DNA from: an uncultured Verrucomicrobiae bacterium
GTDB taxonomy: Bacteria; Verrucomicrobiota; Verrucomicrobiia; Chthoniobacterales; JAATET01
Length of the DNA stretch: 64,000 nucleotides
NCBI GenBank assembly: GCA_963719495.1
Contig: CAVRCI010000002.1
Span: 640,001 to 704,000 of the forward strand
Direction of reading: 5' to 3'
The notes beneath the pieces were generated by a model that was given only the letters and a program-made list of their open reading frames with translations, was not told where the DNA came from and ran no database searches. Numbering within the stretch: the stretch's first letter is position 1; each line of letters starts with the position of its first letter. This document shows positions 1,017 through 27,134 of this stretch, piece after piece. The translations under genes were made by a program, and so were the position numbers.

Positions 1017-1032
1017 AGGGCTGGGTGCTCAC

Positions 1033-1087
1033 TTGACAGCAGCGGTCCGGAGTTTTCACGCTAAGGCCTGGCGTTACGCCTAACGCC
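1033..1087 (+). promoter_or_regulatory. Putative sigma70 promoter and palindromic operator upstream of LacI copy A
   Basis: TTGACA at 1033-1038. Inverted repeat GGCGTTA-cgcc-TAACGCC at 1070-1087 sits directly before ATG 1088. Confidence 0.45.
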
Positions 1088-2126: not shown

Positions 2127-2145
2127 TCCCGGTCTTCTTACGAAC

Positions 2146-3555: not shown

Positions 3556-3602
3556 GGCGGGTAATGGTTTGATTTTGGGTTTCGGCGGGGTGGTGAAATC
3601 GT

Positions 3603-4634: not shown

Positions 4635-4640
4635 TCGCTC

Positions 4641-4673
4641 GTTACGTGTATCAACCGACTTCGCTTGAGTCAA
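4641..4673 (-). promoter_or_regulatory. Putative promoter of LacI copy B overlapping a TACACGTA operator-like site
   Basis: Minus strand TTGACT (4673-4668), 17-bp spacer ending TGA, then TACACGTAAC. Lies in the divergent LacI/amidohydrolase intergenic region. Confidence 0.45.
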
Positions 4674-4753
4674 GGCGACGGTCGAGTATGAGTGGAGAAG
4701 GACGATTTCGGGTGGGGATCCGCATCCCGCCGCGATTCGATCCGCACCTTTCC

Positions 4754-10968: not shown

Positions 10969-11039
10969 GCCGGAATAGTGCAAAAACTGGAAGGCAAAGT
11001 CCATTGTCGAGCGGGTCGCTCGCAGTCTACCTTTGGCGC

Positions 11040-12209
11040 ATGAGTGAGTCTTCCCCGGTGCGTATCGGCATCATCGGTCTTGGCAACATGGGCACTTCGC
11101 ACGCGAAGACCATCCTTGCCGGCAGCGTCCCCGACCTTGAACTCGCGGCTGTCGCCGACCTCGATCCGGCTCGGCTCGAGAAATACCCCGACCTCGAGCG
11201 CTTCGAAGACGCGATGGCTTTGATGAGCAGCGGGAAAGTCGACGCCGTGCTGATCGCCACGCCGCACTACAGCCACACGCCACTCGGAGTCGCGGCGCTC
11301 CAGGCCGGGCTGCATGTCCTCGTCGAGAAACCGATCTCGGTGCACAAGCAAGAATGCGAAGAACTCATCGCCGCTTACCGACCGGAGTCTGGCCAAATTT
11401 TTGCCGCCATGTTCAATCAGCGCACCGACCCGCGCTACCGCAAGCTCCGGGAGCTGATCCACGACGGCACGCTGGGGACGATCCGGCGGATCAATTGGAT
11501 CATCACCGACTGGTTTCGCACCGAGAGTTACTACCAATCCGGCGGCTGGCGCGCGACGTGGGCGGGCGAGGGCGGGGGCGTCCTGCTCAACCAATGCCCG
11601 CACAACCTCGATCTTTGGCAGTGGCTCTTCGGGATGCCGGACCGCGTGATCGCCCGCTGCCAGATCGGACGTTTTCACGACATCGAAGTCGAGGATTCCG
11701 TCACCGCGATGTTGGAATACGAAAGCGGCGTTCAGGGTGTCTTTGTGACAACGACGGGAGAGGCCCCGGGAACGAACCGCCTCGAAGTGGTCGCCGAGAA
11801 CGGCAAAATCGTCATCAGCAACGACCAACCCGGGCTCGTCTTCACGCGCAACGAGCGTCCGAGCAGCGCGTTTTCCCGCGAGTCGACTTCGAGCTTCGCG
11901 AAACCCGACGTCTGGGACGTCTCGATCGGCGTCCACGGCAACGGCGAGCAACATCTCGGGATTCTAAAAAATTTCACTGCGGCCATCCGGGGCGAGGAGG
12001 CGTTGGTCGCTCCCGCGGAGGACGGGATTCATTCCGTCGAGTTGGCGAACGCGATGCTCCTCTCCAGTTTCCGCGACCAACCCATCTCGATTCCCGTCGA
12101 CGGAGCCGAATACGCGGCCGAGTTGAAAAAAAAAATCGAATCCTCGACGTTCCGGAAAGCGGAGCCGACGAAGACCAACTCGGTTGATGATTTCTCGAAG
12201 AGCTTTTAG
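11040..12209 (+). CDS. Gfo/Idh/MocA family oxidoreductase
   Basis: IGIIGLGNMG Rossmann motif, HVLVEKP, GGGVLLNQCPHNLD. Confidence 0.93.
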   Translation: MSESSPVRIGIIGLGNMGTSHAKTILAGSVPDLELAAVADLDPARLEKYPDLERFEDAMALMSSGKVDAVLIATPHYSHTPLGVAALQAGLHVLVEKPISVHKQECEELIAAYRPESGQIFAAMFNQRTDPRYRKLRELIHDGTLGTIRRINWIITDWFRTESYYQSGGWRATWAGEGGGVLLNQCPHNLDLWQWLFGMPDRVIARCQIGRFHDIEVEDSVTAMLEYESGVQGVFVTTTGEAPGTNRLEVVAENGKIVISNDQPGLVFTRNERPSSAFSRESTSSFAKPDVWDVSIGVHGNGEQHLGILKNFTAAIRGEEALVAPAEDGIHSVELANAMLLSSFRDQPISIPVDGAEYAAELKKKIESSTFRKAEPTKTNSVDDFSKSF

Positions 12210-12245
12210 GCGGACCGCAATCCGCAAACCCAAACGATTTTTATT

Positions 12246-13340
12246 ATGAGCAGAGACGGAATGAATTACCTGCCGGAGATCAAATCGGCCCCCGTGGTGA
12301 AACCCGGCGAGTTCGTGTTCGCGGCGTCGCACTTCGACCACGGCCACATCTACGCGCAGGTCCGCAGCCTCGTCAACGCGGGTGGCGTCTGCCGCGCGAT
12401 CTTCGAGCCTCGCGCCGAGAAGCTCGAAGGGCTAAAGGATCTCATCGAGAGCGGCACGAAGGTCGTGCAATCCTTCGAGGAACTTCTCGACGATCCGGAA
12501 ATTCAGGTCGTCACGTCCGCCGCAATCCCGAACGAACGGGCCGACATCGGTCTCCGCGTCCTCGACGCGGGGAAAGACTATCTCACGGACAAAGCGCCCT
12601 TTACCACACTCGGACAACTGGAAGCCGTTCGGGCGAAAGTCGCCGCCGTGAACAATCGCTACATGGTGTGTTACTCGGAGCGCCTTTGCAGCGAATCCGC
12701 GTGGCAGGCCGGCGAACTGATCCGCCAAGGAGCGATCGGTCGCGTCCTTCAAGTCCTCAACCTCGCACCGCACAACCTCGCGGCGTCGACTCGACCGGAA
12801 TGGTTTTTCGAGAAGGAGCGATACGGCGGAATCCTCACCGACATCGGGTCTCACCAATTCGAGCAATTCCTCACCTACAGCGGGGCCAGCGACGGAACGA
12901 TCAATTTCGCGCGAGTCGAAAATTTCGGCAATCCGGAGCATCCCGGTCTGGAAGATTTCGGCGAAGCCTCGCTCACTCTCGATACCGGAGCCTCGGCCTA
13001 TTGCCGGATCGATTGGTTCAACCCGAAAGCCTCGCGCACGTGGGGTGACGGTCGGACTTTCGTCCTCGGAGACAAAGGTTACTTGGAACTGCGCAAATAC
13101 ATCGACGTCGCGCGGGATGGCGGTGGCGACCAAATTTTCCTCGTCAACGACGATACGGAATCCGAGATCGAGTGCCGGGGTAAAGTCGGGTTTCCGTTCT
13201 TTGGAAAGTTCATCCTCGACGTCCTCAACCGCACCGAGCACGCGATGACCCAAACCCACGCGCTCAAAGCCGCCGAACTCTCACTCCAAGCGCAGGTGAT
13301 GGCTGACGGGGGCAATGCGCTTACCCGCCAGAGCGCGTGA
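12246..13340 (+). CDS. Gfo/Idh/MocA family oxidoreductase
   Basis: DYLTDKAP (EKP-equivalent), YGGILTDIGSHQFE. Confidence 0.88.
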   Translation: MSRDGMNYLPEIKSAPVVKPGEFVFAASHFDHGHIYAQVRSLVNAGGVCRAIFEPRAEKLEGLKDLIESGTKVVQSFEELLDDPEIQVVTSAAIPNERADIGLRVLDAGKDYLTDKAPFTTLGQLEAVRAKVAAVNNRYMVCYSERLCSESAWQAGELIRQGAIGRVLQVLNLAPHNLAASTRPEWFFEKERYGGILTDIGSHQFEQFLTYSGASDGTINFARVENFGNPEHPGLEDFGEASLTLDTGASAYCRIDWFNPKASRTWGDGRTFVLGDKGYLELRKYIDVARDGGGDQIFLVNDDTESEIECRGKVGFPFFGKFILDVLNRTEHAMTQTHALKAAELSLQAQVMADGGNALTRQSA

Positions 13341-13419
13341 GCCTATAATGGAAAATCGCTGAGGAGAGCGTAAAGCGCGTAGCGTTAGCGGGATGCAGAT
13401 CGCTGATGCGCAGGAGTCG

Positions 13420-14770
13420 ACTCACCCAGAGGGTGAGTCGAAATAGCAGATGGAAGGGGAGGCTGGCCGGAGGATACGCCGGAAGGGAGGTATTAGGCGG
13501 AAGGGGACGAGACGACGCCGGTGACGCAAGAGGGATACTTGATTTTCTTTTTCCAGTTTTTGGAGGCGGGCGGAAGGTGGTAGGAGTTTCTGTCGGCGTG
13601 CCAGTAGAGGCATGCAGGCATCGATGTCACGGTCAAGCCGCTCTTCGACCGACAGGAAGGAGCGCGCATCGGTTACAACCCGCAGAAGCCCGGTCGTCCC
13701 CGTCACTCCTATCACAGTTACTTCGTGGCCAATTTGAGGATGAGCCTGGGAGTGGAAGTCCTTCCGCGCAACGAACACGCCGGGGCGCGGGTGCCGCCTG
13801 GCTGGTCGGAGACATTGGAAGAACTTCCCCGCCACCGCTGGCCGACGTTGGCCCGCGGCGATTGCGGCTGCGGCAACGAAGCGGTGATGCTTGAGTGTGA
13901 CGAACGGGGCCTGCCCTACCTCTTCAAGCTGCGGCACACGGCTAAAGTCAAAACGTTGGTCCAGACCATCATGAGGGCTGGAGCGGCGTGGGAAGGTTGC
14001 GGCGATGGCTGGCAGGCCCTGGAGAGTTCGATCCGTTTGAGTGGTTGGACGTGCGCTCGCCGAGTCGTGCGCGTCCGTGAAAGTCCAGCTCGGGCACCGA
14101 TTCGCGAACCCGACAGGCCCCGGCGCGGTAAGAATCGCCCCAAGCTCAAGGCGAAGGCTGGGACTCCCAAGCAACCCCTTGGAGCGGTAAGTTCGCCATT
14201 CTGAATACTTCACTAGACCCCCTAGCCCACCCCGGCCGCGTCATGGCCGAGCATTACCGCCAACGCGCCGACGCCGAACCGAAGCGCAGATAGACCGCCG
14301 CAGGCAGCCCGAAGGGTGGAGCGCGGCGACATCAGAACGCCGTCGACGAGCTTAAAAAACCGTGGAGCTAGAGGGGTTTCACCTCGCATCGTCTGGCATC
14401 CTGCCGCCTGATGGCCAACCGCATCGCCCCCTTTTGCCGCTGGTGGTGCCTCTCCCTACGCTTCTACGACGATGAGCATCACCGTGAAGCCATCCACTCC
14501 CGACCCATTCTCAAGGCCGGAGTCGCCCGCCAGATCAAGAGCGCCGGTCAGCGCACCGTGCGCGAGAGTATCCTGCACGAAATAGGACATCTCATCGCCC
14601 ACGCCCTCACCCAGATCAGCAACGAGATCGCCTTCATCAGTTCCATCACGGAGCGATGAACCGTGTCCCAACGCTGGCCCCTGCTCCTGACCCGCCTTTT
14701 GTGCCGCTGGCTCGGTGGGAAATAGCTCTCCGAACTGCCTCCCGACACGGCCCTGCTCCTTAGCGGGTGA
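13420..14770 (+). pseudogene. Degraded IS1380-family transposase remnant
   Basis: Fragments THPEGES, TPVTQEGYLIFFFQFL, IDVTVKPLF..QEGARIGYNPQKPGRPRHSYH, RGDCGCGNE, YRQRADAE..NAVDELK. Multiple stops, frameshifts, an apparent internal deletion and a 57-bp insertion. Confidence 0.8.
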
Positions 14771-14962
14771 GAAATCATCCCGGACTTCACCCCCTGATCC
14801 CCGAATCCCGCGAGTCCTCCTTCTTGGCGCTGCTCCTACTCGCCCATTTTCTTCTTTTGGGTGAAAAAGTCGTTAGGCGTTGGATTCGCCGAGTTGCTTG
14901 ATTAGAGCACGGTAGGCAACAATTTTGAGATGTGTATTCGTTGAAAGCGGCTGCTACCCGCC

Positions 14963-16294
14963 CTACGCGAAGACGAAGGAATCGGGTTTGATGGTGTCCC
15001 GAGCAATCCGGCTCAGATAGGCCTCTAGCCAGCGGTTGTGTTTGCCGGAGGCGCTAGCTTGGCGGGCAAGAGCGGTCAGCTTGGCCTTCGGAAGGGCGGT
15101 GAGATTGAGCTCCTTGCGGATGAGTGTGATGCGCTCTGCGAACTCTTCGACGGTGAGCGGTTCCAGGATGAGGAGGTCGGCGTTAAACCGGAAAAGTAGC
15201 TCATCGGGGATCGCGGTTTGGGAATCGAGATCGATGGACCAATCGGTTTCGGCGGAGGAATCGGCCTTGAAACCCATCGAGCGGGATTTGCAGGAGTAAA
15301 GGTTTTGCCAGGTGCCAGCGCCGACGATGAAAAAATTGTCCCGAAACTTCGCCGCGAGTTCGTCAGTCCATTCGGAGAACGGTTCCGTGCGCCCGTCGAG
15401 AACGGCGAAGACTTCCTGACGCAGATGTAGACTCCAATCGGACGAGCCGTTGAGCTTGTCGACTTCGTCGATGAATAGGAGACCGCGGTCATTCGCTTTG
15501 ACGAATGCGGCCAAAGCTTGGGGAGTCGACGGCGCTTGGCGGGCGCTCTCGAGAATCCATGAGCCGCAGTCCGTTCCCATGAAGGCAAGGTTCTGATCGG
15601 CGGAAAACCGGTTCACGAGAGCCGTCTTGCCGGAGCCGGACGGTCCGACGATGAGCGGAATGGGCCGCGTGTCGTAACCCGCCGCGCGGATACGCTTGCG
15701 CTTCATCGCGTAAAACCCCTGGAGCTTGGCTAGCAGCAGCCGTTGCGACTGACTGAGCTGGAAAGATTGACTGGCCGCGGATGGTTTTGGCTGGGTGCGC
15801 TTGAAAAGTCCGACGGCGACGTGTTCGCTGAACGAAATGCGACTCCAACCGACGAGATCAAACGGAGGAAGTGAGCGGGCATCCGGGGAGCGTGTCCAGA
15901 CGAGTGTCATGGGTGTATGCAGATCGAGCTTTAGCAGCGCAGCGATGAGATCGGCGCGAATCGGCAGGTTGTTTGCGAGCCCTGCCTCAAGAGTGTCGGC
16001 GATCAGAAGAACGGTCGCGCGTTCAACTTCGAGCGACACGGGCTTCGTAGCAAAGATGGCATTCAAGTAGCTGAAAACGTGACCGGTGAGTCCGAATCTG
16101 TCGTGGGATTCATTTCCGAGCTGATACAGCGGTCCGCGGTTGTCGCTCGCTCCGATTTTCCAATTGATAACGCGCTCACGGAGGTAGGCGACGTAACAGC
16201 GGAGTTGGACGGTGAGGGCCTTGGCCTCGGCTTCACTGGTGCCGAGATTGTAGGCGATGAGGTCCTTGGTGAGTTCAGTTGTGGTGTTGTTCAT
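14963..16294 (-). CDS. ClpX/HslU-like AAA+ ATPase with unknown N-terminal domain
   Basis: Walker A VGPSGSGKT, Walker B LLFIDEVDK, FIVGAGTW...SMGF...IPDELLFRF, which parallels ClpX FICGGAF...GIGF...IPEFIGRL. Confidence 0.8.
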   Translation of the reverse strand: MNNTTTELTKDLIAYNLGTSEAEAKALTVQLRCYVAYLRERVINWKIGASDNRGPLYQLGNESHDRFGLTGHVFSYLNAIFATKPVSLEVERATVLLIADTLEAGLANNLPIRADLIAALLKLDLHTPMTLVWTRSPDARSLPPFDLVGWSRISFSEHVAVGLFKRTQPKPSAASQSFQLSQSQRLLLAKLQGFYAMKRKRIRAAGYDTRPIPLIVGPSGSGKTALVNRFSADQNLAFMGTDCGSWILESARQAPSTPQALAAFVKANDRGLLFIDEVDKLNGSSDWSLHLRQEVFAVLDGRTEPFSEWTDELAAKFRDNFFIVGAGTWQNLYSCKSRSMGFKADSSAETDWSIDLDSQTAIPDELLFRFNADLLILEPLTVEEFAERITLIRKELNLTALPKAKLTALARQASASGKHNRWLEAYLSRIARDTIKPDSFVFA

Positions 16295-16342
16295 ACTCCG
16301 CCGAGATACGGAGGTACGTTTTCCACGTTGGGCTTGGGTCGG

Positions 16343-17128
16343 CTACTCGGCGCAGCCGTAACGGCTCGCCCAGAACCGCGCGGTCGCGAGGATCTCGTCG
16401 CCGAAGTCGTCCGGCCACTTCGCGTCGACGTAGAGGTCGATTTGGCGACTCCAGTAGAGACGGGGACCAGCGGGTGTTTCGAAGAGTGACGTCTGGGGCC
16501 AGCGCAATCGGGCGAGGTAGCGGTTAGTTGAAAGCTTGCGCCCATCGCGGCGGGCGGCGACCAGCCGCGTCAGACGGTCGCTGGCCTCGCGACGGCTCAG
16601 ATCGGGATGCACGATCCGGGGCCGGAATAGTCGCTCGTTGAACGGACGAAGGTCATCGATCAGCCCCAGGAATTGCAGCCGCGCTTGATCAGGCTGGCTG
16701 TGCCGGGAAAGAATGTGGGCAACCTCCGCTGCCAGTCCAATTGTCGCCTCGACGCACAGAGTATCGTCGGGATGCGAGAGCAGGTAGTCCGCGATGCGGC
16801 TGTCCTCGAGAGTGCGCAATGCTAATTCTTGGCGGTAGTCGTCGAGCTGACGCTCCCATCTTGGATCCGGTGAAGCTGCGTAGAACGCCCGGTTGCCGAT
16901 AAGTCCGATCTGGTGCACGCGCGGCACACTCAGCACGCTGTTACGAGCGGCAGCGAGGAGCTGTTGGCCGAGACGCTTGAGCAAATCGGGTCGAAGCTCC
17001 GGGCGGCGAGCGAAATAGATCTGCAGGTCCTGACTACAGACCGGTCGCGCGAGTTCCTCCGAAAGGACGCGCACGGATTCGATGAGCCGTGCCTTCTGCG
17101 AACGGAGATGAACCTGCAAAATACTCAC
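16343..17128 (-). CDS. Hypothetical protein (261 aa), possibly an N-terminal winged-helix
   Basis: GTG start overlaps the stop of the TnsC-like gene (GTGA coupling). No family motif recognised. Confidence 0.65.
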   Translation of the reverse strand: MSILQVHLRSQKARLIESVRVLSEELARPVCSQDLQIYFARRPELRPDLLKRLGQQLLAAARNSVLSVPRVHQIGLIGNRAFYAASPDPRWERQLDDYRQELALRTLEDSRIADYLLSHPDDTLCVEATIGLAAEVAHILSRHSQPDQARLQFLGLIDDLRPFNERLFRPRIVHPDLSRREASDRLTRLVAARRDGRKLSTNRYLARLRWPQTSLFETPAGPRLYWSRQIDLYVDAKWPDDFGDEILATARFWASRYGCAE

Positions 17129-17913
17129 TCGGTGATCAGGTCGCGGAGAACGGTGCTCACCCGTTCCTCATCGACTTCGGCGGTGCCGTGCCGAAGAACG
17201 TAGAGCCGGGCAAAGTAGTTTAGTCGTCTAAGGCTGCCACCGGTCCCGGCGTGGATCAGGGACGCGGTTCTGCGCGCGGTTTTGTCGCCGGAGTTGATGC
17301 GGATGGCGAGTTCGTCGAAGACTGGACTCCACTGACGAAGGGTCGCCAAGCTGAGCGCTGCGGAAAGCGGTTTCCCGTGACAGCAACGCAGTGTGCGGGA
17401 CATCCCCGGAGCGTAATGAGCCAACCAAGTTGCCAATTCAGTGTTGCCGCAGAGAATGGCGCTGAGCCCGTAGTCATCCGAGTGGGCCGCGTCCACCATG
17501 GCGATGAAACCTTTCAGGCCGTCCAAGGGCCAGTGATCGGCTTCGTCGACGAGGAGGAGTTTGATTTCACGGGCTCGAATCTCGCGCAGGGCGAGCTTGA
17601 TGAGCACCTGCAGCGTCAATCCGCTTGGAATCGTGGAACTTCGAATCCCGATGGCGTGCAGAAAATCCCGCACGCATCGCGTGTGGCCCTCCGTTTGATA
17701 CGCGCGAAAGTAGAAGCAATTTGATCCGGGACGACTGAGCTTCCGCTCGACTGATCGGAGCGCGACCGTCTTGCCGATTCCGCTGGGGCCGGTGACCGCT
17801 CCCAGACAGCCGAGCTGGAGGCAATCACTGGCGAGAATTTCGACTTCCTCAAGCAGGGGAATCGTTACGATCCGCTCAAGGGTTGGTTCGGGAGTAGTCG
17901 GAGAGTCTTTCAT
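17125..17913 (-). CDS. TnsC/TniB/MuB-like AAA ATPase (transposition helper)
   Basis: TGPSGIGKT, LLLVDEAD, TGGSLRRL. Directly downstream of the DDE transposase. Confidence 0.88.
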   Translation of the reverse strand: MKDSPTTPEPTLERIVTIPLLEEVEILASDCLQLGCLGAVTGPSGIGKTVALRSVERKLSRPGSNCFYFRAYQTEGHTRCVRDFLHAIGIRSSTIPSGLTLQVLIKLALREIRAREIKLLLVDEADHWPLDGLKGFIAMVDAAHSDDYGLSAILCGNTELATWLAHYAPGMSRTLRCCHGKPLSAALSLATLRQWSPVFDELAIRINSGDKTARRTASLIHAGTGGSLRRLNYFARLYVLRHGTAEVDEERVSTVLRDLITE

Positions 17914-17971
17914 TTGGTTTAGATACGCGGAGCTTTTGTCGGGGATGGCGGGTCGAGGTAGGAGTGATTAA

Positions 17972-19492
17972 TTACGCCTCGTCCTCGGACTCATCTGGGA
18001 GTTCCGGGATGGTGAGGTCTTCTTCGCCGTTCCATTCTTTTTCCCAGTCTTCGCCGTTGCTCATCGGGATCACTTTGTCGTCCTTGCGGCCCGTCAGCTT
18101 CGACGGGTGTTCAGGCAAGATTCGGCGGGCTTCGCGGATGAGGGCTTTGCGCAACCGAGCCAATTCCTTGGCGCGAACCAGGCGCGCGCTTCCGAGTTGT
18201 TCGGCGAGTTTGGAATTCCCTTCGATCTGGTGAAGTCGCGCGATCAAACGTCCATCGTGGAAGCAATCTGCCTCAGTATCGCCACCTTCCGGGCGCAAAC
18301 GAAGGGTGACGCGCTGACGGACGAGTCCGGCCAACTCGGGCGCGGTCAGGTGTCGACCCGGTCCGATCTCGATTCCATCGCGATTGACGGTTTTCTCAAC
18401 CCGCACCTTGCAGGCTTCGACGACATCGTTGGCGAGAAAACTCAATCCGTGCGCGTCGCAGAGTCCGTCGAGCCACGCCTCGTAAGGACTTTTGCCGAGG
18501 GAGCGATGTTCGCGGAGATGGTAGTCGGCGAGAAACTTCTCGGTGAGGCGAGGGAGGATCGGCCAGGGTAGGGGATTCGCTTTGGCCGCCTGGAGTCCTC
18601 GGTGTTGGTGGGCATATCCGTCGAGATGCCGGAGGAGCTGGTCGCCGAGAGTCCGGAAAAAGCGTTCGATTTTGCCATTACTGGAGGGACAATCGTTCTC
18701 GATCCGCTTCGCTTGGACACCGAGGCGGAGCAGAGCGTCGAGGAAGTCGGCGCTTTTGAAAATGCTGCCATTGTCGGTTTGCACCGTGTTGGGAACGCCG
18801 AGAAACGGGAATCGGTCGTCCTCCGTTGGAAGGATCGCAGTTCTTAACGCGAGAAGTAGGTCGGATGTCGTCGGAGAAGTGCGGACAAGGTGCAGCCGCA
18901 TCACGATGCGCGTGGCGCAGTCGATAATCCCGATGGCCCACGGCTGGAAGAGTTCGCCCGAGACTGGATCGAGGATCCAGACACCGATCTGCGTCGCGTC
19001 GATTTGCCAGCAAGCGTTCGGAGCGGTGTGCTCCTTGCGCTGAACGAGGCCCCATTTTTCGAACAGATGTTTGCTTCCGTGGATCATCATCTCCCGAGCG
19101 TCGGGCGGCAGCTTGGTCACGGCCCGAAGCAGCATCCCGTAGGACGGAAATGACCAACCCTCGCTTTTGGCAATCGGTTCGAGAGCTCGCCAAGCGGCGG
19201 TTAGCGTCGTTCGGCGATGGGTGGCGGTGAACGCCAGAACCCAGGTGAGGCACAGCGAGTCGACCTCGCTTCGACGACCGTTCGACTGGCGGTGATCGAT
19301 CAGCCCATTGAGTCCGCTTTTGGACCTTCGGAGAATCGAGCGCAGCGTCGATTCGGGAATCCCGGCCCGTGCGGCAAATGCTCGGATCGAGAGCTCAGAT
19401 TTCTTGAAACGTTCGATCAGCTGTTTCGCTTCGAAGACCCGGAGTAGTTGTCGTTCGTCAAGAATACCGCCTGGATGATTGGTCGTTTGCAT
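17972..19492 (-). CDS. Mu/TnsB-like DDE transposase (integrase core)
   Basis: N-terminal HTH (SIRAFAARAGIPESTLRSIL), catalytic WQIDAT / VQTDNGS / NGKIERFF, Mu-C-like KTVNRDGI, acidic C-terminal tail. Confidence 0.92.
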   Translation of the reverse strand: MQTTNHPGGILDERQLLRVFEAKQLIERFKKSELSIRAFAARAGIPESTLRSILRRSKSGLNGLIDHRQSNGRRSEVDSLCLTWVLAFTATHRRTTLTAAWRALEPIAKSEGWSFPSYGMLLRAVTKLPPDAREMMIHGSKHLFEKWGLVQRKEHTAPNACWQIDATQIGVWILDPVSGELFQPWAIGIIDCATRIVMRLHLVRTSPTTSDLLLALRTAILPTEDDRFPFLGVPNTVQTDNGSIFKSADFLDALLRLGVQAKRIENDCPSSNGKIERFFRTLGDQLLRHLDGYAHQHRGLQAAKANPLPWPILPRLTEKFLADYHLREHRSLGKSPYEAWLDGLCDAHGLSFLANDVVEACKVRVEKTVNRDGIEIGPGRHLTAPELAGLVRQRVTLRLRPEGGDTEADCFHDGRLIARLHQIEGNSKLAEQLGSARLVRAKELARLRKALIREARRILPEHPSKLTGRKDDKVIPMSNGEDWEKEWNGEEDLTIPELPDESEDEA

Positions 19493-19642
19493 GGGGGCGA
19501 GATACGGAGTGCCTCGGCCAGAGATCTGGACCCGCTCGAGCGATGAAAATTGCCGACTGCTACCGGCGAATTTTTTAAAACGCGCCGAGTAGCCGAACGC
19601 GGGGGGATGCGCGTGGGCTCGTTTGCGAATGACTCTGGCAAC

Positions 19643-22600
19643 TCACCTGGGCCGATAGCGCGAACGAGCAACGGCCGATCTGATCTTGGCAACTTGGCGA
19701 GGGTCGGGCGGCGACTCGAACCGAATCACGACGCGAAGGCGCTTCTGGGAGGCCGCTCGGTGGATCTGGACGATCGCTTCAACAATATCTTTTTCCGGGA
19801 GCGGCGACGGGATGAGGACGTGGTGAGCAACCGGATCTAGAAAGATCGGGTCGGAAGCCAAATCTTCGCTTGAGGTGCTGAGGTGAACATCGTCAGGTCG
19901 GCCAAGGCGATCAATGGGTGCGTTTTCAATTCGTGTGACCTCGCTTTGTAGCGAAGCGGTGGCAGCCAATTCGCCGCTATAGAGCTTGTGGAGACGGCGA
20001 AGCCGATCAAGCCCGGGTTTTTCTCCATTTCTCAAGCACGACTGTTCCAGAGATCGAATCTCGGGATCACCTTCGATTGTCGTGGGTGTGGAGGAGTATC
20101 GATACAGAAACGCGCCGACGTATCGACACATCAACGTGTGGCCCCAAGCGTGGCCGAATGATCGAATCATCGTGGCAAGTCCGTGGATCGGGTTCGGATG
20201 ACTTTCAGCGATTTGGTTCAACTGCCCGATTGCGCGCCAACGGCGAAGACTGTGCGGTTTTGCGAGAGGAAGTAATCGCCGGAGCTGGCGGCGAATCTGC
20301 TGGGTTTGAGACGTGGCTTTCGATGCAAATTGCGAACCCCGCCGGGCCATTGCAAAGAATGGAGCGCCGATCAGCTCAGGAAACTCGGATGTGCTGACGA
20401 AAATGATTCGTTTCGCGGCCTTTGTTTTCCCGCGGCGAACATACATCGTCATAAACGCAGGGTTGCGATTGTCGATGAGCGCGATCAGCGTTTCCGAGAC
20501 CCGCAGTCCGCCGACGATTATCGCCAGCAAGCGCGAACCAACAAAATCGGCCAGTCGGCGGCGTTCCTCCAACGAAACGCCAGCAGGTCGAACATCGATG
20601 TTGCCACGGAAAATCTCGGAGATTGCGTGAAAAACCGTCTCGTCCGTTGGACAATATTCGGGTGCCGACGGCTCCAGCAAACCAGCTGGGCGGCATCGGC
20701 TCATCAATCTTTCCGCCAGCGCTTGGGCCGGACCGGACCTGTGCATGATGGAGAGGGTGAGGTCGTAAAACCGAGAGTATCCTGGCGTGATGCGCTTTTC
20801 GACAACCCAATTGAAGATTTGATCTTCCACCTGTGCAGTCGTCCGATTGGCAGCATCGAAGACGAATGGATATCTCTTTAGTTGGAATGCCCGATCGCTA
20901 ATTGGTTTTATGGAGCGGCGCTTCTGGAACGGGAATTGGTCGTAGTCGGATCCATCCAAATACTGAAGCTGCGAGACACCGATCGCGGCGCGCAGGTCCA
21001 TTTGGTTGAGACCGTCCGGGATCAACTCGGCGAGCGCGGCGGCGACCGGACCTGGCTGCCGCCACCGGCACAATGCGACGGATAGGCGTTGGGTGAGTGT
21101 CAGTGCAAATTCGGGAAAAATCCGTATGCGACGCTGTTCGGTGCGGAGGCGGGTGGCGACTATGCGGCAGATCCCGCGGTGGATGGAGTCCGTTGTTCCC
21201 GTGAGGAGTGAAAAATTGAGAAGGGCCGATCGACCCGCCATTTGTGGATGCGTTCTTTGAACTCGATCCCGTCGATCGAAGATGAGCCGAAGCGACTGAG
21301 ATTTTCTGGGGAACTTGATTGGATAGAACTCCAAGCCGCCAAGATCATTTCCGAACAGCGGCACGAGGAAGAACCAGTCTTCCGAGATCGGGTCCTGAAT
21401 GACGTTTCTCAGGGTCAGGTAGTGGGACGCTTCAACAAGCTGCCGGATCGGCGTGCCCAGCTCGAGGGCAAGCGCAACCAGAAGCCCCGCTCCTGTTTTC
21501 GGTAGAGGCGGCCCGAAGTGGACAGCATGGATCAAGTCCGAACCGATGGAGGATTCTAGTGCGGTGAGAGGCTGAAAGGTGCGACTGCGTGCGTCGAACG
21601 TCAGTTCGCGGTGAGGTGGGGCGCCATTTGTGTGAGACTTGGCCGACTCTGAAAAATTTGGTTTCCGGGCAATCCCGTCGAGCGATCGCCGGAGAGCATC
21701 AACTGCGTCTCCCAATCCGGAATCCTTTTCGAACTGCTCGAAAACCGCCGTGCAGCGATCAAACAGATCTAAATTCGAGAGGGGGAGGAAAGTCGATTCC
21801 CAGCTGGCAGCCGTGTCGTGTCCGCTGAGGGCACCGGTCGCGAAGGGGTCACGATTCTGGCGGGTGATCGCGTTGTAGAAGGCCGTTCGTCCCTCTTGGT
21901 GGGTCGACGTTTTCGTTTTTTGGTCGCGTTTGAGCGACGTTTCCGCCGGAAGAAACGGCTCATCCCCAAAGAAATCTCGCCCGATGCGAACGAGTTCGCG
22001 GGTGGCGTTCGTTAATGGAAGGTAGCGCACTCCGATCGCTCGGTCATTCGCCCACTTGTCCACAATTTGAAGACAGGAGGCGGGGAACGATCTGGCGCAG
22101 TGAGCCGGATTTTCGATCTGGTTTCGGTTTCGAAATCCAATGCCGCCGAGGATGGCGACGAGCGCGGCTCTACATTCGGCCACCGTTCCTGCGGCCCGGG
22201 TCTGATCGATGATTGCATCGAAGAGCTCACGGGATGAGCGACATACCGTGCCATGCGTGTGTTCCGAGAATTGTTTGCTGGAGATCTCGTCTGTTGCCGG
22301 AATTCCGGCCCACTGCTCCAGTTTCCGCACAGTCTTCAGCCAGAGCGTGCGAAGTTCGGAAGATGTCCGGGAAATGTAGGCGCATTCCGTTCCCGATCCG
22401 TAGACCGGATAACCGCGGATCAAACTCAATTCAGCGGCACTGACGCCACACTCGAGAAGTGCCGCAGCGTCGAACGATCGGTGGATGGCGACCGACCGGG
22501 ATGGGATTGGCCCGCACTGAACCGCAATTTCCTTTCGCAGGTAGTCCCGATGGTCCGAGTGCACTCCGGCTGGCAGCTGCTGCGCAATGGATTTTCCCTT

Positions 22601-23503
22601 CTGGACCAAGCCAGCCTTCGCGAGGTCGTTGACGAGGCAGGGGAGCAGCGGTAGCTCGAGAAGGGAAAGCTGAAAGCCCGTGTTGCCGTAGTAGGTGCCC
22701 CCGATTTCTTTGACAAATACCCTGCGTTCCAAGTCGATCCACCCCGGGGCACTTTGGGAAGGCGGCCCTCCGATCTCGCAGTCGAGGAGGTCTCGGTAAT
22801 CGATCGCGTAGTAGATCGACAATTTGGCGAGCGCTGCAAATGCCGGCATCAAGCGGTGGGGGTTTTTCCGGGACAATTTGACGTGAAGGTGACCACTCAG
22901 CGACGCGCAGCAGACCGGTCGAAACTGATCGACGACCGACCAGCGAATGATTCGCCCGTGGGCTGAGCGGGCTGGCTTCGCGTCCTCGAATTTCTCCCAC
23001 GGATCCAGATCTTCCCGCCGCTCCCCGCGGGTTCGCTCGGTAAGAGGGCTGCCTTCCGCGAAAAGCGCAATCATCCGAGACACGGCCGTTACAGTCTTCT
23101 CAGATAATCGGACGTCGCGGCGGTCGAGTAGTCCCGTTGGGCTTGGCAGCTGGAGAGTAAATTCGGCAGCTTGGAGGTGCGTTTCCACCGTTCCGCCCAT
23201 CCGGGTGATTCGCTCTTGGAGCACCAGATGCCTCCGAGCAACCCGAGCGATCATCCCGACTTCGGTCTTCGAGCTTGCCGCATTGAAGTAATCGGGGAGT
23301 TGGTTCACGCAGGTTTGAGCGGCCTGTCTTATCCGGTCGTCCGCCGCGATAGCTCGCAACCAGCCTGGCGTTCCAAGTAGCGAGATGAATCTTTGGAATT
23401 CAAGAGCGCAACACTCGTTGCCAAATCCCGCCTCGGGATGGGCGACTTGCACCCCACGAACTCGAAGCGCGGCGACAGTCGAGGCCAGGGTGTGGCTATT
23501 CAT
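19643..23503 (-). CDS. Very large (~1290 aa) protein with tyrosine-recombinase-like domains
   Basis: C-terminal catalytic set GGLRVSE, GKTKAAKR, HSLRRW, FGH...CRY. A second internal set GIGFRN, IVDK, RYLPL, HQEGR, SGH. ATG 23503 overlaps the upstream stop (ATGAATAG). Confidence 0.8.
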   Translation of the reverse strand: MNSHTLASTVAALRVRGVQVAHPEAGFGNECCALEFQRFISLLGTPGWLRAIAADDRIRQAAQTCVNQLPDYFNAASSKTEVGMIARVARRHLVLQERITRMGGTVETHLQAAEFTLQLPSPTGLLDRRDVRLSEKTVTAVSRMIALFAEGSPLTERTRGERREDLDPWEKFEDAKPARSAHGRIIRWSVVDQFRPVCCASLSGHLHVKLSRKNPHRLMPAFAALAKLSIYYAIDYRDLLDCEIGGPPSQSAPGWIDLERRVFVKEIGGTYYGNTGFQLSLLELPLLPCLVNDLAKAGLVQKGKSIAQQLPAGVHSDHRDYLRKEIAVQCGPIPSRSVAIHRSFDAAALLECGVSAAELSLIRGYPVYGSGTECAYISRTSSELRTLWLKTVRKLEQWAGIPATDEISSKQFSEHTHGTVCRSSRELFDAIIDQTRAAGTVAECRAALVAILGGIGFRNRNQIENPAHCARSFPASCLQIVDKWANDRAIGVRYLPLTNATRELVRIGRDFFGDEPFLPAETSLKRDQKTKTSTHQEGRTAFYNAITRQNRDPFATGALSGHDTAASWESTFLPLSNLDLFDRCTAVFEQFEKDSGLGDAVDALRRSLDGIARKPNFSESAKSHTNGAPPHRELTFDARSRTFQPLTALESSIGSDLIHAVHFGPPLPKTGAGLLVALALELGTPIRQLVEASHYLTLRNVIQDPISEDWFFLVPLFGNDLGGLEFYPIKFPRKSQSLRLIFDRRDRVQRTHPQMAGRSALLNFSLLTGTTDSIHRGICRIVATRLRTEQRRIRIFPEFALTLTQRLSVALCRWRQPGPVAAALAELIPDGLNQMDLRAAIGVSQLQYLDGSDYDQFPFQKRRSIKPISDRAFQLKRYPFVFDAANRTTAQVEDQIFNWVVEKRITPGYSRFYDLTLSIMHRSGPAQALAERLMSRCRPAGLLEPSAPEYCPTDETVFHAISEIFRGNIDVRPAGVSLEERRRLADFVGSRLLAIIVGGLRVSETLIALIDNRNPAFMTMYVRRGKTKAAKRIIFVSTSEFPELIGAPFFAMARRGSQFASKATSQTQQIRRQLRRLLPLAKPHSLRRWRAIGQLNQIAESHPNPIHGLATMIRSFGHAWGHTLMCRYVGAFLYRYSSTPTTIEGDPEIRSLEQSCLRNGEKPGLDRLRRLHKLYSGELAATASLQSEVTRIENAPIDRLGRPDDVHLSTSSEDLASDPIFLDPVAHHVLIPSPLPEKDIVEAIVQIHRAASQKRLRVVIRFESPPDPRQVAKIRSAVARSRYRPR

Positions 23504-24338
23504 GGCCATCGGAATCCAACGGAGTCGGTTCGATGACTGCGGCGACGATGGGATCCGATCGCAATCGATCAAAGCCGAAGTCTACAAGATGCTGCAGCCA
23601 CCTAAGAACCCGCGCGAACTCAGTGTCGGCGACGGAGAAGCCGTGGATCAGAGTTTTCTCGAGCAGCCCCGGCTGAACTTCGGTGACCTCGAGGAAGCGG
23701 GAGATGACGGGGTTCAGCAGTTCCGGTGGTGTGGTTACACAATGCTCAGGCAGGATCGCTCGCCGTCGTCGTTGCCGCTGTCGGCTGAGAGAAGCCTTTG
23801 GAGCATCCAAGCGTTTCAGGGCGAGGATTACCTCGAAACATCGTTGCAGGTGCTCCAAGGCGGTCGATCGCGGAATCGGCAGAGCCAGCCAGTTTGTGGG
23901 AACTTCCGAGAGCAATGGTTCGCCCCCCGTGCAGGCCGACAGGCCGAGCTGCTCGGCGGATGGCTTTGCATAGTCGCAAGCATTTCTGCTTTTGGTGGGA
24001 TCTGATACGACGGTCGATCTATTCTTACGCTCCGACCGGCGACCGCCCGCTGTCTGCGAACTGGCTTCGACTTCCGAGCCTGCTGCGAGATTGCGCCGCA
24101 ACTTCGGGTCGGTCTTCCGTTCTCTCTTAAACGACCCTAGGACCGAGAAATTGCAACTGGGCGAGGGAAAATCTGCGGCGATCCCCGGAAGCTCCAAAGC
24201 GTCGGACTCCATCAGGGAACGAGCCTGCTGCGCGGCAAGCTTTGCCGCTTTCTCTGCCTGAAGTTTGCGATCGAGCAACGGTGTAATCGCGCTTCTGGTA
24301 AACCCATTTTTGGCGTGGCCTCCGGTAAGTCGTATCAT
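23496..24338 (-). CDS. Hypothetical protein (280 aa)
   Basis: ATG-started ORF translationally coupled to the large recombinase gene. No recognised motif. Confidence 0.55.
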   Translation of the reverse strand: MIRLTGGHAKNGFTRSAITPLLDRKLQAEKAAKLAAQQARSLMESDALELPGIAADFPSPSCNFSVLGSFKRERKTDPKLRRNLAAGSEVEASSQTAGGRRSERKNRSTVVSDPTKSRNACDYAKPSAEQLGLSACTGGEPLLSEVPTNWLALPIPRSTALEHLQRCFEVILALKRLDAPKASLSRQRQRRRRAILPEHCVTTPPELLNPVISRFLEVTEVQPGLLEKTLIHGFSVADTEFARVLRWLQHLVDFGFDRLRSDPIVAAVIEPTPLDSDGHE

Positions 24339-24898
24339 TCACACGAGAGTATGACCGTTTACTTCTGCCGCTACGGACGGCAGGCGCTTTTTCGGAGTAA
24401 TTGACCACCTCTGCCCAAAAGTGACGTCAGAGTAAGAAGGCTGGCTCGGGCCACGTTGGAGTGGAACCGATCGCACACCGTCGACGAAACCGTGACCGTA
24501 AACATTCCGTTACCGTCAACCCGGCGCGGCCCGTGGCCGCCCATGCGCGAAGATTAACAGAGTAAAGTCCGCTGGGATCACCGCCATTCGTGCGCGGGTT
24601 TCAATGTGTAGCTACACCAAGACGCTTCTTGGTCGCCAATGCCATTTTTAGATTCAACGATTCTCTTTTGCTATTCGCCCGCTTCCCTCGCTCGCTGAGT
24701 CAACGTTTGGGGCAACCGGCCGTTAACGGTCTCGGCCTTGCCGACGACCCGGTGGGCCCGGCTCCAATTTTTTATTCTGGAGCGGATGAAGCCTTCGAGT
24801 CTGCAAACTTTGGGAACCAATAGGGTCGGCACCGAGGATGTTAATATTGTGGTGGCGGCTGAACTACGCTGTCGGGGGAGCGGGGTAACTCTCGCGAG

Positions 24899-27022
24899 TC
24901 AGTCGTGGCGATCGAGCCAGAGAATCATTGTCACGCCACGGGGGTAGTATTTGCTGCCGAGTGGATGTCCGTCGTGGCTGCGGACTTGATCCACGAAGGC
25001 CCAATCCGCGCAGCCCGTCTGCTGCCACTTCGCGTGCGCCCGGTCCCAGCCGGGCGCGTCGGGTGACGTGATGCCGAGGATGGTGTCGTGGACGAACTGC
25101 GAAAGCGCGATTTTGCTCATCCAGGTATTTTGGCTCGTGGAGGAAATCTTCCAGCCGCCGGTGACCGCGTCGATGCAGGTGCCGGTGACGAGGACCGTGC
25201 GAATGTGGGTGGCCAACTTTTGCACCAAGGGGCCGAATCGCCCGTCCGGCGAGACGGCGTCGGCGTCGTCGAGGAACCACGGGAAGACGAGCCCCTCGAT
25301 GGCGGGGATAATTGCCGACTCCTCGTTCTCTCCGATCACCGCAGGGAGTCGGTCGCGCTGTTCGTCGAAAGCGCCCACGATGGTCGCCGCGGCCAGGGCG
25401 GCCTGGTGTTCCGTGGCTTCGGCGAGAGCGGTGCGGTCCAGACTCCGGAAGGCGTGGGAGAGCGCGACGCAGGCGGCCCACGTTTTCACGGCCAGATAGA
25501 CGTTTTGCCGGGCCTGGCCGAGGCTGGAGTCGAGGCTGTCGTAGGTGGTGATCTCTTGACCCAGCGTGCCGCACCGCGACGAGTCGAGGAGCATGATCCC
25601 GGTGCGTTTGCCCGGATCGGGATGGTCGCGGCTGAGTAGGCTATCGAAGGTTCGCGCGAGAATGGGAGCTTGCTCGCCGAGCCAATTGGGATCGGGGGAG
25701 CGAAGTCCGTAAAGGGTGGCGCAGAGGATGAAGTTCACGAGCTGCTCGTGGGTCATGTGACTGAAACATCCGGGCTTGTCGGCCAGCTCGTAGCTGGACC
25801 AGCCGGGGGGCGTGAATTGATTGGCGATACCCATGTCGTGAGTGAACGAGATGCCGCCGGGCGACGGCTCACGGTCCGCCAGGACGTTCTGCGTGGTGTC
25901 CTCGTAGGAATAGGTTTCGACGAATTGATCGAGCACGTTTCGAACAGCCCAGGGGAAGTAGCGGAGTTCGAAAAACAGGTGGTCGACCGTGAGGTCGAAG
26001 GTATTCATCATCCGATACTCGCCTTCGTTGACGACGTAGAGCGGCTGGCCGGTGACGGTGTGCCGAAGCAGCTGGGTGCTGCCGAAGTAGCTGTGAGTGG
26101 CGTGGGCGAGGAGAAATTGGCGGTCCGCGTTGAGGTCGCTGGCGGCGAGTTCCGCCTCGCGTTCGGTGCAGACTCGGCGGAGGTCCGGTGCGCGGGTGAG
26201 GGCGGTGCGCAGGACGTCTTCGAGGTCGGCGTAGTGCTGGGTGTAGAGGTAATCAGTCGGAATTCCACTGGTGACTGTGCCGTCAAGGTAGAAGCCGAGC
26301 GCGACCGTGAAGGTACGAGTGGTCCGGGGCGGCACCCGGAACAAGAGTCCGCCCTGGCCGACGAGGCGGTGGATTTCCCCTTCGCCCGTGGCGACGGTCC
26401 TGGCGGTGTTCCAGGTGAGAATTTCCTCGGCGTCGGGCGTGGTGGCCTCGACGGCCAGACCGTAGCGGGGGCCGGAGGCAACGCCGAGTAGCTCGCCTCC
26501 GGTGGTGTCGGAGAGGAGGCGGAGGGGGCTTTCACCCTTGGTACCGATGCCGAAGTAGGTCCAGGCCGGGTGATCGGAATCGCGGTTGTCGAGCGTGATT
26601 TCCGAGAGAATGGCGGGGAGAATCGCGAGACGGAACTCTCCCGCCGGGGCGGTGGCGGGGTCGGCGACCGGCCCGAAAGGAGTGAGGAGGCGGAACGTCA
26701 GGTCGCTCGCCGACCACGCGTCGGTCGTCCAGCCAAGTGAGCGATCGATCTCGTCTTTCGAGAATACGCGCCAATGCTCGAAGGAGCCGTGGTCGCTGGC
26801 GGCGTCCTCGAGGGCGAAGTCGGCTTTCGACGCCGTGTAGCCGGAAAAGAACGGCAGCGCGCGCGGAGTTTCACCCTCCCGCGAGTAGGCGACGTAAACT
26901 TCCTGATCGGCGGGGCGACCGAGTTCGAGGCCGAATCCGCCACCGACGCCGTGGCGTCCGAGGGTGAAGCTGGAGTGGGCACCGAAGGGGCTGTGGTGGG
27001 CGTGAAAGTCGTTGGAGATCAT
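24899..27022 (-). CDS. GH52 beta-xylosidase
   Basis: FHAHHSPFGAHSSFTLG, VVNEGEYRMMNTFDLTVD, GGISFTHDMG, EITTYDSLDSSLGQAR, SKYYPRGVT. Confidence 0.92.
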   Translation of the reverse strand: MISNDFHAHHSPFGAHSSFTLGRHGVGGGFGLELGRPADQEVYVAYSREGETPRALPFFSGYTASKADFALEDAASDHGSFEHWRVFSKDEIDRSLGWTTDAWSASDLTFRLLTPFGPVADPATAPAGEFRLAILPAILSEITLDNRDSDHPAWTYFGIGTKGESPLRLLSDTTGGELLGVASGPRYGLAVEATTPDAEEILTWNTARTVATGEGEIHRLVGQGGLLFRVPPRTTRTFTVALGFYLDGTVTSGIPTDYLYTQHYADLEDVLRTALTRAPDLRRVCTEREAELAASDLNADRQFLLAHATHSYFGSTQLLRHTVTGQPLYVVNEGEYRMMNTFDLTVDHLFFELRYFPWAVRNVLDQFVETYSYEDTTQNVLADREPSPGGISFTHDMGIANQFTPPGWSSYELADKPGCFSHMTHEQLVNFILCATLYGLRSPDPNWLGEQAPILARTFDSLLSRDHPDPGKRTGIMLLDSSRCGTLGQEITTYDSLDSSLGQARQNVYLAVKTWAACVALSHAFRSLDRTALAEATEHQAALAAATIVGAFDEQRDRLPAVIGENEESAIIPAIEGLVFPWFLDDADAVSPDGRFGPLVQKLATHIRTVLVTGTCIDAVTGGWKISSTSQNTWMSKIALSQFVHDTILGITSPDAPGWDRAHAKWQQTGCADWAFVDQVRSHDGHPLGSKYYPRGVTMILWLDRHD

Positions 27023-27134
27023 GGGCGAGGATGGCTTTTTGGTTGGATGGATTGGCTGAGAGCGGGGTGGGGTTCGTTGGCGATCAAGAGAAAATGGAAT
27101 TGGAGAGTTGGGAGCGTCGAGACGGGAGCGAATT

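Follow-up and report, generated by a model that had tools for sequence, protein, structure and literature searches.

What kind of element is formed by six co-oriented genes that stand together in the genome of an uncultured Verrucomicrobiae bacterium (Chthoniobacterales, JAATET01; GenBank assembly GCA_963719495.1)? The genes lie in a 64,000-nucleotide stretch of contig CAVRCI010000002.1 (positions 640,001 to 704,000), hereafter the window, and positions are counted from its first letter unless another locus is named. In reading order they encode a protein of 280 amino acids (p280), a giant tyrosine recombinase (gene big), a transposase (tnsB), an ATPase (tnsC), a protein of 261 amino acids (p261) and a further ATPase of the AAA+ type. 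A first-pass annotation, made from the letters and their translations, had listed these six genes with start/stop coupling at two junctions and had suggested an undescribed transposon architecture. By calling of open reading frames (ORFs), all six were found intact and in one orientation on the minus strand of the window, at the coordinates of Table 1. Both overlaps are real: ATGAATAG at 23496-23503 combines the p280 stop with the start of big, and GTGA at 17125-17128 combines the tnsC stop with the start of p261.

The reading that we put forward, and to which we assign roughly even chances, is that the cluster is a replicative transposon whose giant recombinase resolves cointegrates. Gene identities were sought in the Pfam, NCBIfam, PHROGs and PADLOC libraries.

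Conserved order of the genes

Homologues of big were sought in 40 relatives and found in three of them, G008 (three copies), G001 and G015. A metagenome scan with a TnsB alignment gave one more distinct locus, L094, with the same sequence as L093 and L095. Five of the seven distinct loci with a big homologue carry tnsB, tnsC and p261 beside it (the window, L009, L010, L012 and L094), and the order big, tnsB, tnsC, p261, AAA+ recurs in the window, in the three diverged copies of G008 and in the metagenome contig. In each of the five the last gene is that for the AAA+ protein, which is complete in the window and in L094 (41% identical), cut by the contig ends in L009 and L010, and represented by its start only in L012. 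Compared with the window proteins, big is 26-28% identical, TnsB 52-62%, TnsC 40-47%, p261 30-37% and the AAA+ protein 34-41%. Thus, the six-gene cluster is more than a chance assembly, because the gene order is conserved in four other loci whose proteins have diverged to 26-62% identity; chance nesting of a transposon in an integrase island, which the first-pass annotation had named as one outcome that would refute its proposal, is not borne out.

That the genes belong together is also apparent at their junctions. In four of the five loci they have the same order and orientation, with ORFs that abut or overlap. DNA similarity between L009 and L010 is unbroken across the junction of big and tnsB, and in L009 there are 5 nt between the big stop and the tnsB ATG. 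Genes for proteins of 309-325 amino acids overlap the start of big in L009, L010 and L094, and are 18-21% identical to p280, which itself has no match in the four libraries. The five extended loci have no neighbour gene in common.

Some of these loci contain additional genes. Between tnsB and tnsC, L094 carries a metallophosphoesterase and an unknown 255-residue protein (11574-13253), and L010 an unknown 298-residue protein (14483-15379). Directly upstream of the p280-like gene of L009 is a co-oriented gene for 1326 amino acids (9755-13735), with weak matches to Mrr-type nuclease and STAND NTPase, that may be defence cargo of the element.

The giant recombinase

The product of big, of about 1290 amino acids, has no Pfam match. 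The gathering score of PF00589 (Phage_integrase) is not reached: the window protein is unmatched and two of 23 family members match, the best with E 0.0038, because the family is too diverged for the Pfam model. A word-indexed protein search with big returned itself alone. An exhaustive HMMER search of 1.84 billion representatives defined a family of 30 proteins including big at E <= 0.001, seven of them scoring E <= 1e-30. Compared with the PDB, the profile of the family (23 members) found Xer and Tn1549 Int catalytic domains (4a8e, 1e-8; 6en0, 3.5e-5; XerA, 2.3e-4).

We predicted the structure of the last 1199 residues of big with AlphaFold2 (model 1; 28 sequences, predicted local distance difference test (pLDDT) 81.8, predicted template-modelling score (pTM) 0.84), and separately that of residues 316-775 of the model (model 2; pLDDT 84.6). 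Ranks 1-32 of a Foldseek search with model 1 are all tyrosine recombinases or protelomerase, at E 0.011 or worse. Model 2 was compared with 48,161 chains without a Foldseek pre-filter, and its top 31 rows are all recombinases or topoisomerase-IB-fold proteins, placed on two further domains. According to these models, big consists of four tandem tyrosine-recombinase catalytic folds, D1 to D4 (Table 1). The tyrosine-recombinase nature proposed in the first-pass annotation is thus upheld by family profile and predicted structure, despite the absence of a Pfam match. The four-domain build, which that annotation did not contain, is the most unusual feature of the cluster.

The four folds differ in what they retain. 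D1 aligns with residues 99-279 of Xer 4a8e (VIA; Z 11.0, root-mean-square deviation (rmsd) 3.6, 166 residues aligned) and with the catalytic domain of SSV1 integrase (VIA; Z 8.9), and its tyrosine is kept in 24 of 24 family members. Among the 48,161 chains, D2 matches 4a8e with Z 10.2 and 5vfz with Z 9.9; its residues R371 (26/27), K396 (27/27), R452 (26/26) and H475 (25/26) are conserved in the family. The residues of catalytic type in D1 and D2 are assigned by conservation. D3 matches XerA and XerH (both Z 8.0) and IntI (Z 7.8) over residues 233-428 of the sub-model, and has no catalytic residue conserved across the family. D4 aligns with XerH (VIA; Z 11.0 and 10.8, the former with rmsd 3.0 over 150 residues), and Cre, lambda Int and Tn1549 Int align whole-length to model residues 776-1057 with Z 8-9.

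Judged by residue conservation, the full R-K-H-R-H-Y set is kept in D4 only, where it stands in canonical order (R1001, K1026, H1084, R1087, H1118 and Y1128 in P0001 numbering). Counting the aligned family members that have a residue at each position, the arginine is present in 24/24, the lysine in 21/23, the first histidine in 15/23 (tyrosine in 8/23), the second arginine in 23/23, the second histidine in 21/23 and the tyrosine in 22/22. Profile comparison between the four domains is not significant, and the repeat is therefore visible in structure only. In the limited literature collection consulted, neither a multi-domain single-chain tyrosine recombinase nor such a cluster is described.

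Transposition genes and their mobile core

The 506-residue product of tnsB matches rve (4.7e-8), Mu HTH (2.2e-4), Mu-transpos_C (9e-4), phrog_310 (5.8e-51) and the PADLOC TnsB model (1.7e-18), and D165, D240 and E276 are invariant in all four aligned homologues, in agreement with the earlier description of a Mu/TnsB-like transposase with intact D-D-E. The IS481 model reaches 90.7 bits against a cut-off of 224. The TnsC/MuB-like ATPase is likewise sustained: the 262-residue product of tnsC, conserved in five loci, matches AAA_22 (6.7e-15) and phrog_296, 'DNA transposition protein' (2.2e-18), with Walker A GPSGIGKT and Walker B LLLVDEAD. The first-pass annotation had recognised no TnsA, TniQ or CRISPR, and on the six proteins there is indeed no family match to TnsA or to TniQ (PF06527), nor is there a CRISPR-like array in the window. 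Genome searches found neither TnsA (PF08722) nor TniQ, but control genomes were equally silent.

A smaller relative of the cluster has moved recently. In genomes G002, G003 and G005, a p261 homologue follows tnsB (34% identical) and tnsC (28-34% identical), and neither big nor the AAA+ gene is present in these minimal elements. The copies of G002 and G003, two species whose shared host genes are about 73-75% identical to the window, have in common a block of 4,642 bp that is 97.0% identical and has unrelated flanks; it holds tnsB, tnsC, a p261-like gene and a DUF790 gene (L182 7504-12040 in G002, L183 7425-11970 in G003). The block starts 13 bp ahead of the tnsB ATG. On the right it breaks off sharply with ...GGCGCGCTACA (terminal CTACA), two AAACGAAAACA repeats standing just inside, and this boundary is separated by 22-31 bp from the 3' end of a tRNA-Gly gene, tRNA-Gly(CCC) in one genome and tRNA-Gly(TCC) in the other. 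A possible 5-bp duplication, CCTCG, is seen in the G002 copy only. We conclude that tnsB-tnsC-p261 is a working transposon core with a site preference that was recently mobile.

The minimal element looks like a small site-specific transposon and has no TnsA, recognisable TniQ or resolvase. In L032, from another metagenome-assembled genome, a TnsB homologue 57% identical to that of the window (157-1653) has ATP synthase genes directly behind it and no tnsC; 156 bp of contig precede it.

The third member of the core, p261, has no match in Pfam, NCBIfam, PHROGs or PADLOC. Its profile against the PDB gave a best E of 0.84, the highest score of an atlas look-up, 0.76, fell short of the useful range, and all of its 19 relatives are unnamed. 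The profile found p261 in five of 17 genomes of the family and in one of 401 genomes across the phylum, the window's own. The gene follows tnsC in all five extended loci and in the minimal elements of G002, G003 and G005. It is inherited with tnsB-tnsC even without a recombinase or AAA+ gene and therefore sits in the TniQ position. The earlier statement that TniQ is missing thus stands by sequence, but not by position, since p261 stands where TniQ stands in Tn5053-type elements. By analogy, p261 would be a positional analogue of TniQ only, and probably acts as target selector or TnsC partner. A complex prediction for TnsC and p261 scored 0.00 against a mark of 0.32.

The gene that closes the set encodes 443 residues and had been called ClpX-like. 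Its AAA+ part is confirmed (PF00004 AAA, 1.1e-8, with Walker A GPSGSGKT and Walker B LLFIDEVD), after about 200 N-terminal residues of unknown type. The ClpX part of the name is not: the NCBIfam ClpX equivalog PRK05342 reaches 15.9 bits (E 0.0046), with 359 required. Among proteins of solved structure the best matches are spastin, Vps4, Rpt3 and ClpX, all with E >= 6.6e-4, and ClpX chains (E 0.0085-0.11) do no better than spastin or Vps4. A ClpX identity was rejected on these grounds. The 39 relatives in a set of 5.8 billion proteins are named at most 'AAA family ATPase'. Judged by its sequence, the protein is a generic classical-type AAA+ ATPase, for which 'ClpX-like' is over-specific.

Table 1 Features of the cluster and their positions in the window
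Feature	Position	Strand	Description
p280	23496..24338	-	280 aa; stop overlaps start of big recombinase
big (giant tyrosine recombinase)	19643..23503	-	1286 aa in database form; ORF open to 23572 (1309 aa)
D1 of big	22307..22945	-	Model residues 100-312; predicted tyrosine-recombinase catalytic fold, conserved Tyr (P0001 Y376), no conserved Arg/Lys/His set
D2 of big	21701..22258	-	Model residues 329-514; predicted catalytic fold with Arg, Lys, Arg, His; no conserved Tyr
D3 of big	21014..21601	-	Model residues 548-743; predicted degenerate catalytic fold
D4 of big	20075..20917	-	Model residues 776-1056; core-binding-like part and canonical catalytic domain (predicted)
tnsB	17972..19492	-	Mu/TnsB/Tn552-type DDE transposase, 506 aa
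tnsC	17125..17913	-	TnsC/TniB/MuB-type AAA+ ATPase, 262 aa
p261	16343..17128	-	New family in TniQ position, 261 aa; start overlaps tnsC stop
AAA+ ATPase	14963..16294	-	443 aa; N-terminal region of ~200 aa of unknown type
Five ACCGTNNAC sites	24354..24730	.	Direct copies at 24354, 24477, 24495 and 24512; inverted copy in palindrome GGCCGTTAACGGTC, ~24717-24730
GTATCT-N7-ATG motif	17911..19508	-	Before tnsB (19490-19505) and tnsC (17911-17926)
CCGTATCT-N9-ATG	16304-16312	-	Before AAA+ gene; related to GTATCT-N7-ATG

Proposed cointegrate resolution, precedents and rival readings

How might these parts work together? The cluster would supply the genes of a Tn552/Tn5053-like transposon of Verrucomicrobiota that has no TnsA, with a mobile core made up of tnsB as DDE transposase, tnsC as putative AAA+ adaptor to target DNA and p261 as presumed target selector or TnsC partner. 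Because no TnsA-type nuclease that cuts the second strand is found, transposition would be replicative and would leave a cointegrate. Big is encoded immediately upstream within the operon, at the place taken in relatives by a serine resolvase, and most likely resolves the cointegrate at a site beside its own gene. D1-D3 probably serve to bind DNA or to assemble the synapse in a single chain, D4 being the complete catalytic domain. The terminal AAA+ ATPase would be a conserved accessory that may remodel or dismantle the transposition or recombination complex. For p280, p261 and the AAA+ protein, we infer the roles from position and conservation.

The candidate resolution site is a repeat cluster upstream of the p280-big operon. 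The sequence ACCGTNNAC has 17 matches in the 64-kb window compared with 6.7 expected, a number reached in none of 100 shuffles, and five of the 17 fall within 377 bp; the other side of the gene cluster has no copy. These repeats may be a res site bound by the recombinase or an operator bound by a regulator. In L094 a similar region, with repeats of its own, occurs on that side alone; little of the kind is seen in L010 and L009.

The separate parts of such an element have precedents. According to Benler et al. (2021, PMC8649781), Tn7-like transposons without TnsA typically have a resolvase ('tnsR') of the tyrosine or serine type, and replicative transposition is predicted for them. The hybrid of TnsA-less TnsB/TnsC with a resolvase is thus an already described pattern, and the architecture as such is not undescribed as the first-pass annotation had supposed. 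What is new, and so far undescribed, is that transposase and ATPase are joined with a four-domain recombinase, p261 and a further AAA+ ATPase; the cassette matches no described element gene for gene. Features of Tn7 are present in the TnsB-type transposase and the TnsC-type ATPase, and TnsA and TniQ/TnsD were not found; because it is without TnsA and TniQ, the cluster is not Tn7 proper. By likeness, the element would work as a Tn552/Tn5053-type transposon, within the class of TnsA-less TnsB/TnsC elements with a resolvase.

Tn552 itself has the transposase p480, the ATPase p271 and the serine resolvase BinL. Like Tn552-type elements, the cluster encodes a Mu-like DDE transposase and, after it, a small AAA_22 ATPase; it has no TnsA, and a site-specific recombinase stands beside the transposase. 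It differs in having a four-domain tyrosine recombinase of 1,290 amino acids where those have a serine resolvase of about 200, no Resolvase domain being found in the cluster, and in three added conserved genes (p280, p261 and AAA+). The nearest TnsB relatives outside the phylum are in seven Actinobacterial genome loci, with Tn552-like transposases about 30% identical to that of the window. The neighbour genes of four of these loci were scanned: three have a serine resolvase, the transposase and an AAA_22 ATPase (L034, L035 and L039), and L037 has no recombinase match. Among 1075 records of plasmid matches to the window TnsB, Staphylococcus is the largest group (425), and a Paracoccus plasmid has a divergent serine recombinase. 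On Rhodococcus qingshengii plasmid pCP2 (L091, positions 539-5080), a site-specific tyrosine integrase (386 aa), a gene annotated 'recombinase' (345 aa, no Pfam match), a Mu-type transposase and an ATP-binding protein follow one another in one direction. We take pCP2 as another example in which tyrosine-recombinase genes occupy the place that a serine resolvase has in Tn552-like relatives. The origin of big by fusion of pCP2-type recombinase genes was also considered and is unsupported, as the big profile has no match to the two pCP2 recombinases.

Other known systems share one or another part. Phage Mu has the same combination of a DDE transposase, with Mu-type DNA-binding and C-terminal domains, and a MuB-like ATPase, and its MuA/MuB machinery relies on host ClpX to take the transpososome apart; it differs from the cluster, near which there are no phage genes and whose AAA+ protein falls short of the ClpX model. 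Recombinase-in-trio elements are multi-integrase elements with separate genes. The Tn5053/Tn402 elements (tniA, tniB, tniQ, tniR) match in the order of transposase, ATPase and third small protein. Together with the 'tnsR' elements they also lack TnsA, have a recombinase in the core set and are predicted to be replicative with cointegrate resolution (PMC8649781). The cluster differs from them in that p261 has neither a TniQ match nor a PDB relative, in the giant tyrosine enzyme and in the added AAA+ gene.

Among recombinase-derived proteins encoded in Tn7-type operons, the closest precedent is TnsF of Tn6022 (Faure et al. 2023, PMC10293859). This protein of 498 amino acids has zinc fingers at its N terminus, two core-binding domains and part of a catalytic domain, without an active site; it is a target selector that needs TniQ and TnsA and targets comM. 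TnsF of Tn6022 and the Tsy elements is like big in its derivation from a tyrosine recombinase, in duplicated recombinase-type domains and in an operon with Tn7-type transposition genes; compared by that description, big differs in its four catalytic-fold domains, the intact active site of D4 and the absence of a TniQ/TnsA partner. The GInt system ginABCD has three integrases and a small protein, with excision as circles (PMC5385486). Several tyrosine-recombinase units at one element end, with a small accessory protein in the operon, are common to both, whereas the GInt units are separate genes and big is one polypeptide of four units linked to a DDE module; the two were compared by fold.

Several observations weigh against a transposon with its own resolvase. 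The window copy is the only one in its genome. Searches for ends over the whole region, between the two flanks and between the tnsB-upstream and AAA+-downstream regions gave chance-level matches only: no terminal inverted repeats, two-end arrays of TnsB sites, 5'-TG...CA-3' termini, target-site duplication or att-like direct repeats were found for it. There is no empty site either, the left and right flanks being adjacent in none of 20 relatives. The AAA+ side abuts a decayed IS1380-like element, and that end of the element may therefore be lost. The ACCGTNNAC cluster has no sequence counterpart in the related loci, and the close TnsB homologue of L032 adjoins ATP synthase genes instead of tnsC. 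Big is inverted relative to tnsB in L012 and occurs without tnsB in two of the seven loci (L011 and L013). Finally, the core trio is mobile without any recombinase; therefore, either resolution by big is dispensable or big has another role.

Some of these points would be explained if two adjacent elements were present, p280 and big forming the integration/excision module of an integrative island, comparable to a multi-integrase operon such as GInt ginABCD but in a single chain, and tnsB-tnsC-p261-AAA+ forming a separate transposon that co-travels with the island or prefers inserting beside it. The recombinase and transposase modules are dispensable to each other, as big lacks tnsB in L011 and L013 and the trio lacks big in three genomes. 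The start of the inverted big of L012 is 55 bp from the tnsB start, and the first position of the minimal block, 13 bp before the tnsB ATG, means that a transposon end can lie right at tnsB. GInts leave as circles with three integrases and a small protein (PMC5385486), and Tn5053-type elements are known to hunt res sites. Two independent elements are less easily reconciled with the common order and orientation of abutting or overlapping ORFs in four of five loci and with the continuous similarity of L009 and L010 across the junction. Neither att-like direct repeats around 13340-24899 nor inverted repeats between the regions upstream of tnsB and downstream of AAA+ were found. We regard this explanation as unlikely. 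A domesticated module with a role in DNA inversion, defence or regulation, or an immobile remnant, would account for the single copy, for the failure to find ends, for the decayed insertion sequence (IS) next to the cluster and for the rarity of the family (p261 in 1/401 genomes across the phylum). Such a copy, kept for a host function, is very unlikely in our view, given six intact ORFs with conserved catalytic and Walker residues, three diverged copies in G008, a GC fraction that differs from the flanks, the recent mobility of a close relative of the core, and a PADLOC scan of the cluster in which no defence family matched except the TnsB model.

Big might, alternatively, be a target selector in the manner of TnsF of Tn6022, binding and bending target DNA and recruiting TnsC with or without catalysis. 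TnsF is a recombinase-derived selector with tandem DNA-binding domains (PMC10293859); three domains of big have the recombinase fold and no full catalytic set, and no TniQ is recognisable on the six proteins. In TnsF, however, the catalytic chamber is lost, and TniQ and TnsA are its partners, whereas D4 keeps its full set across the family. The extended loci lack a common neighbour gene, and the core trio inserts near tRNA-Gly without big, which points to targeting by p261 or TnsB/TnsC. This is the least probable of the readings considered here. It is also quite unlikely, though less so than domestication, that big is a single-chain recombination machine that pre-assembles half or all of the synapse, for which ordinary tyrosine recombinases need four subunits, and that, with p261 as a new kind of selector and the AAA+ protein as remodeller, it defines a new transposon family, self-sufficient in resolution and in the recycling of its complexes. 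By analogy with Flp, which supplies its tyrosine in trans, a composite active site would then be possible besides the complete one of D4, with the D1 tyrosine serving the Arg-Lys-Arg-His pocket of D2.

Tyrosine recombinases are the standard example of enzymes that work as tetramers of single-domain-pair subunits. A natural chain of four such folds, one of them with a full catalytic set, would illustrate the hard-wiring of a synapse; big could be a compact scaffold for engineered site-specific recombination. The comparison suggests that TnsA-less transposons can swap their resolution module freely, using a serine resolvase, separate integrases or a giant fused recombinase. Two unstudied conserved parts would be added to the Tn7/Tn552 world, namely p261, a relative of which travels in an element homing next to tRNA-Gly genes, and the AAA+ ATPase encoded by the element, a precedent, as it would be, for transposons that supply their remodeller themselves and do not depend on ClpX of the host.

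Two candidate signals at the element ends were also followed. A repeat of 194-281 bp common to the G008 loci was dropped as an end, since it lies in coding frame and has a third copy elsewhere. A copy of AAACGAAAACA with two mismatches occurs 20 bp after the AAA+ stop (14933-14943); the window total, 10 copies with 11 expected, is at chance level, and this copy is a weak lead. Among public sequencing runs, one DNA run had 0.20 of the words, and no RNA run was listed; the contigs were short and of low depth, with no joints.

The cluster stands out from its surroundings in composition, with a GC (guanine plus cytosine) fraction of 0.55-0.61 over about 12-25 kb and of 0.63-0.68 in the flanks. The flanks are sugar-metabolism genes: on the left two GFO/IDH/MocA oxidoreductases, the last ending at 13340, and on the right a GH52 hydrolase (24899-27151) followed by ABC sugar-transporter genes. 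Between the oxidoreductases and the 443-residue AAA+ gene lies the IS1380-like element (13347-14865), which has no intact transposase frame. It shares 73-80% identity with a 1.75-kb IS of which G003 and G001 have multiple copies, 99-100% identical within these genomes. The 64-kb window contains no tRNA and no Rfam match. A second copy of the oxidoreductase pair (window 10845-13340), 78% identical, is on another contig of the same genome (G000:C9:78479-80725), and an intact IS4/IS5-type transposase gene (6448-7617; DDE_Tnp_1 9.6e-28, DUF4372 1.2e-25) lies about 7 kb from the cluster.

The genes of the cluster also share a short motif before their starts. GTATCT-N7-ATG has two matches in 64 kb compared with 0.07 expected, and none of 100 shuffles reaches two. 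With the same spacing it precedes tnsB in L009 (4687-4705) and in the minimal elements (L182, about 7504-7520), and it may be an element-specific translation or regulatory signal.

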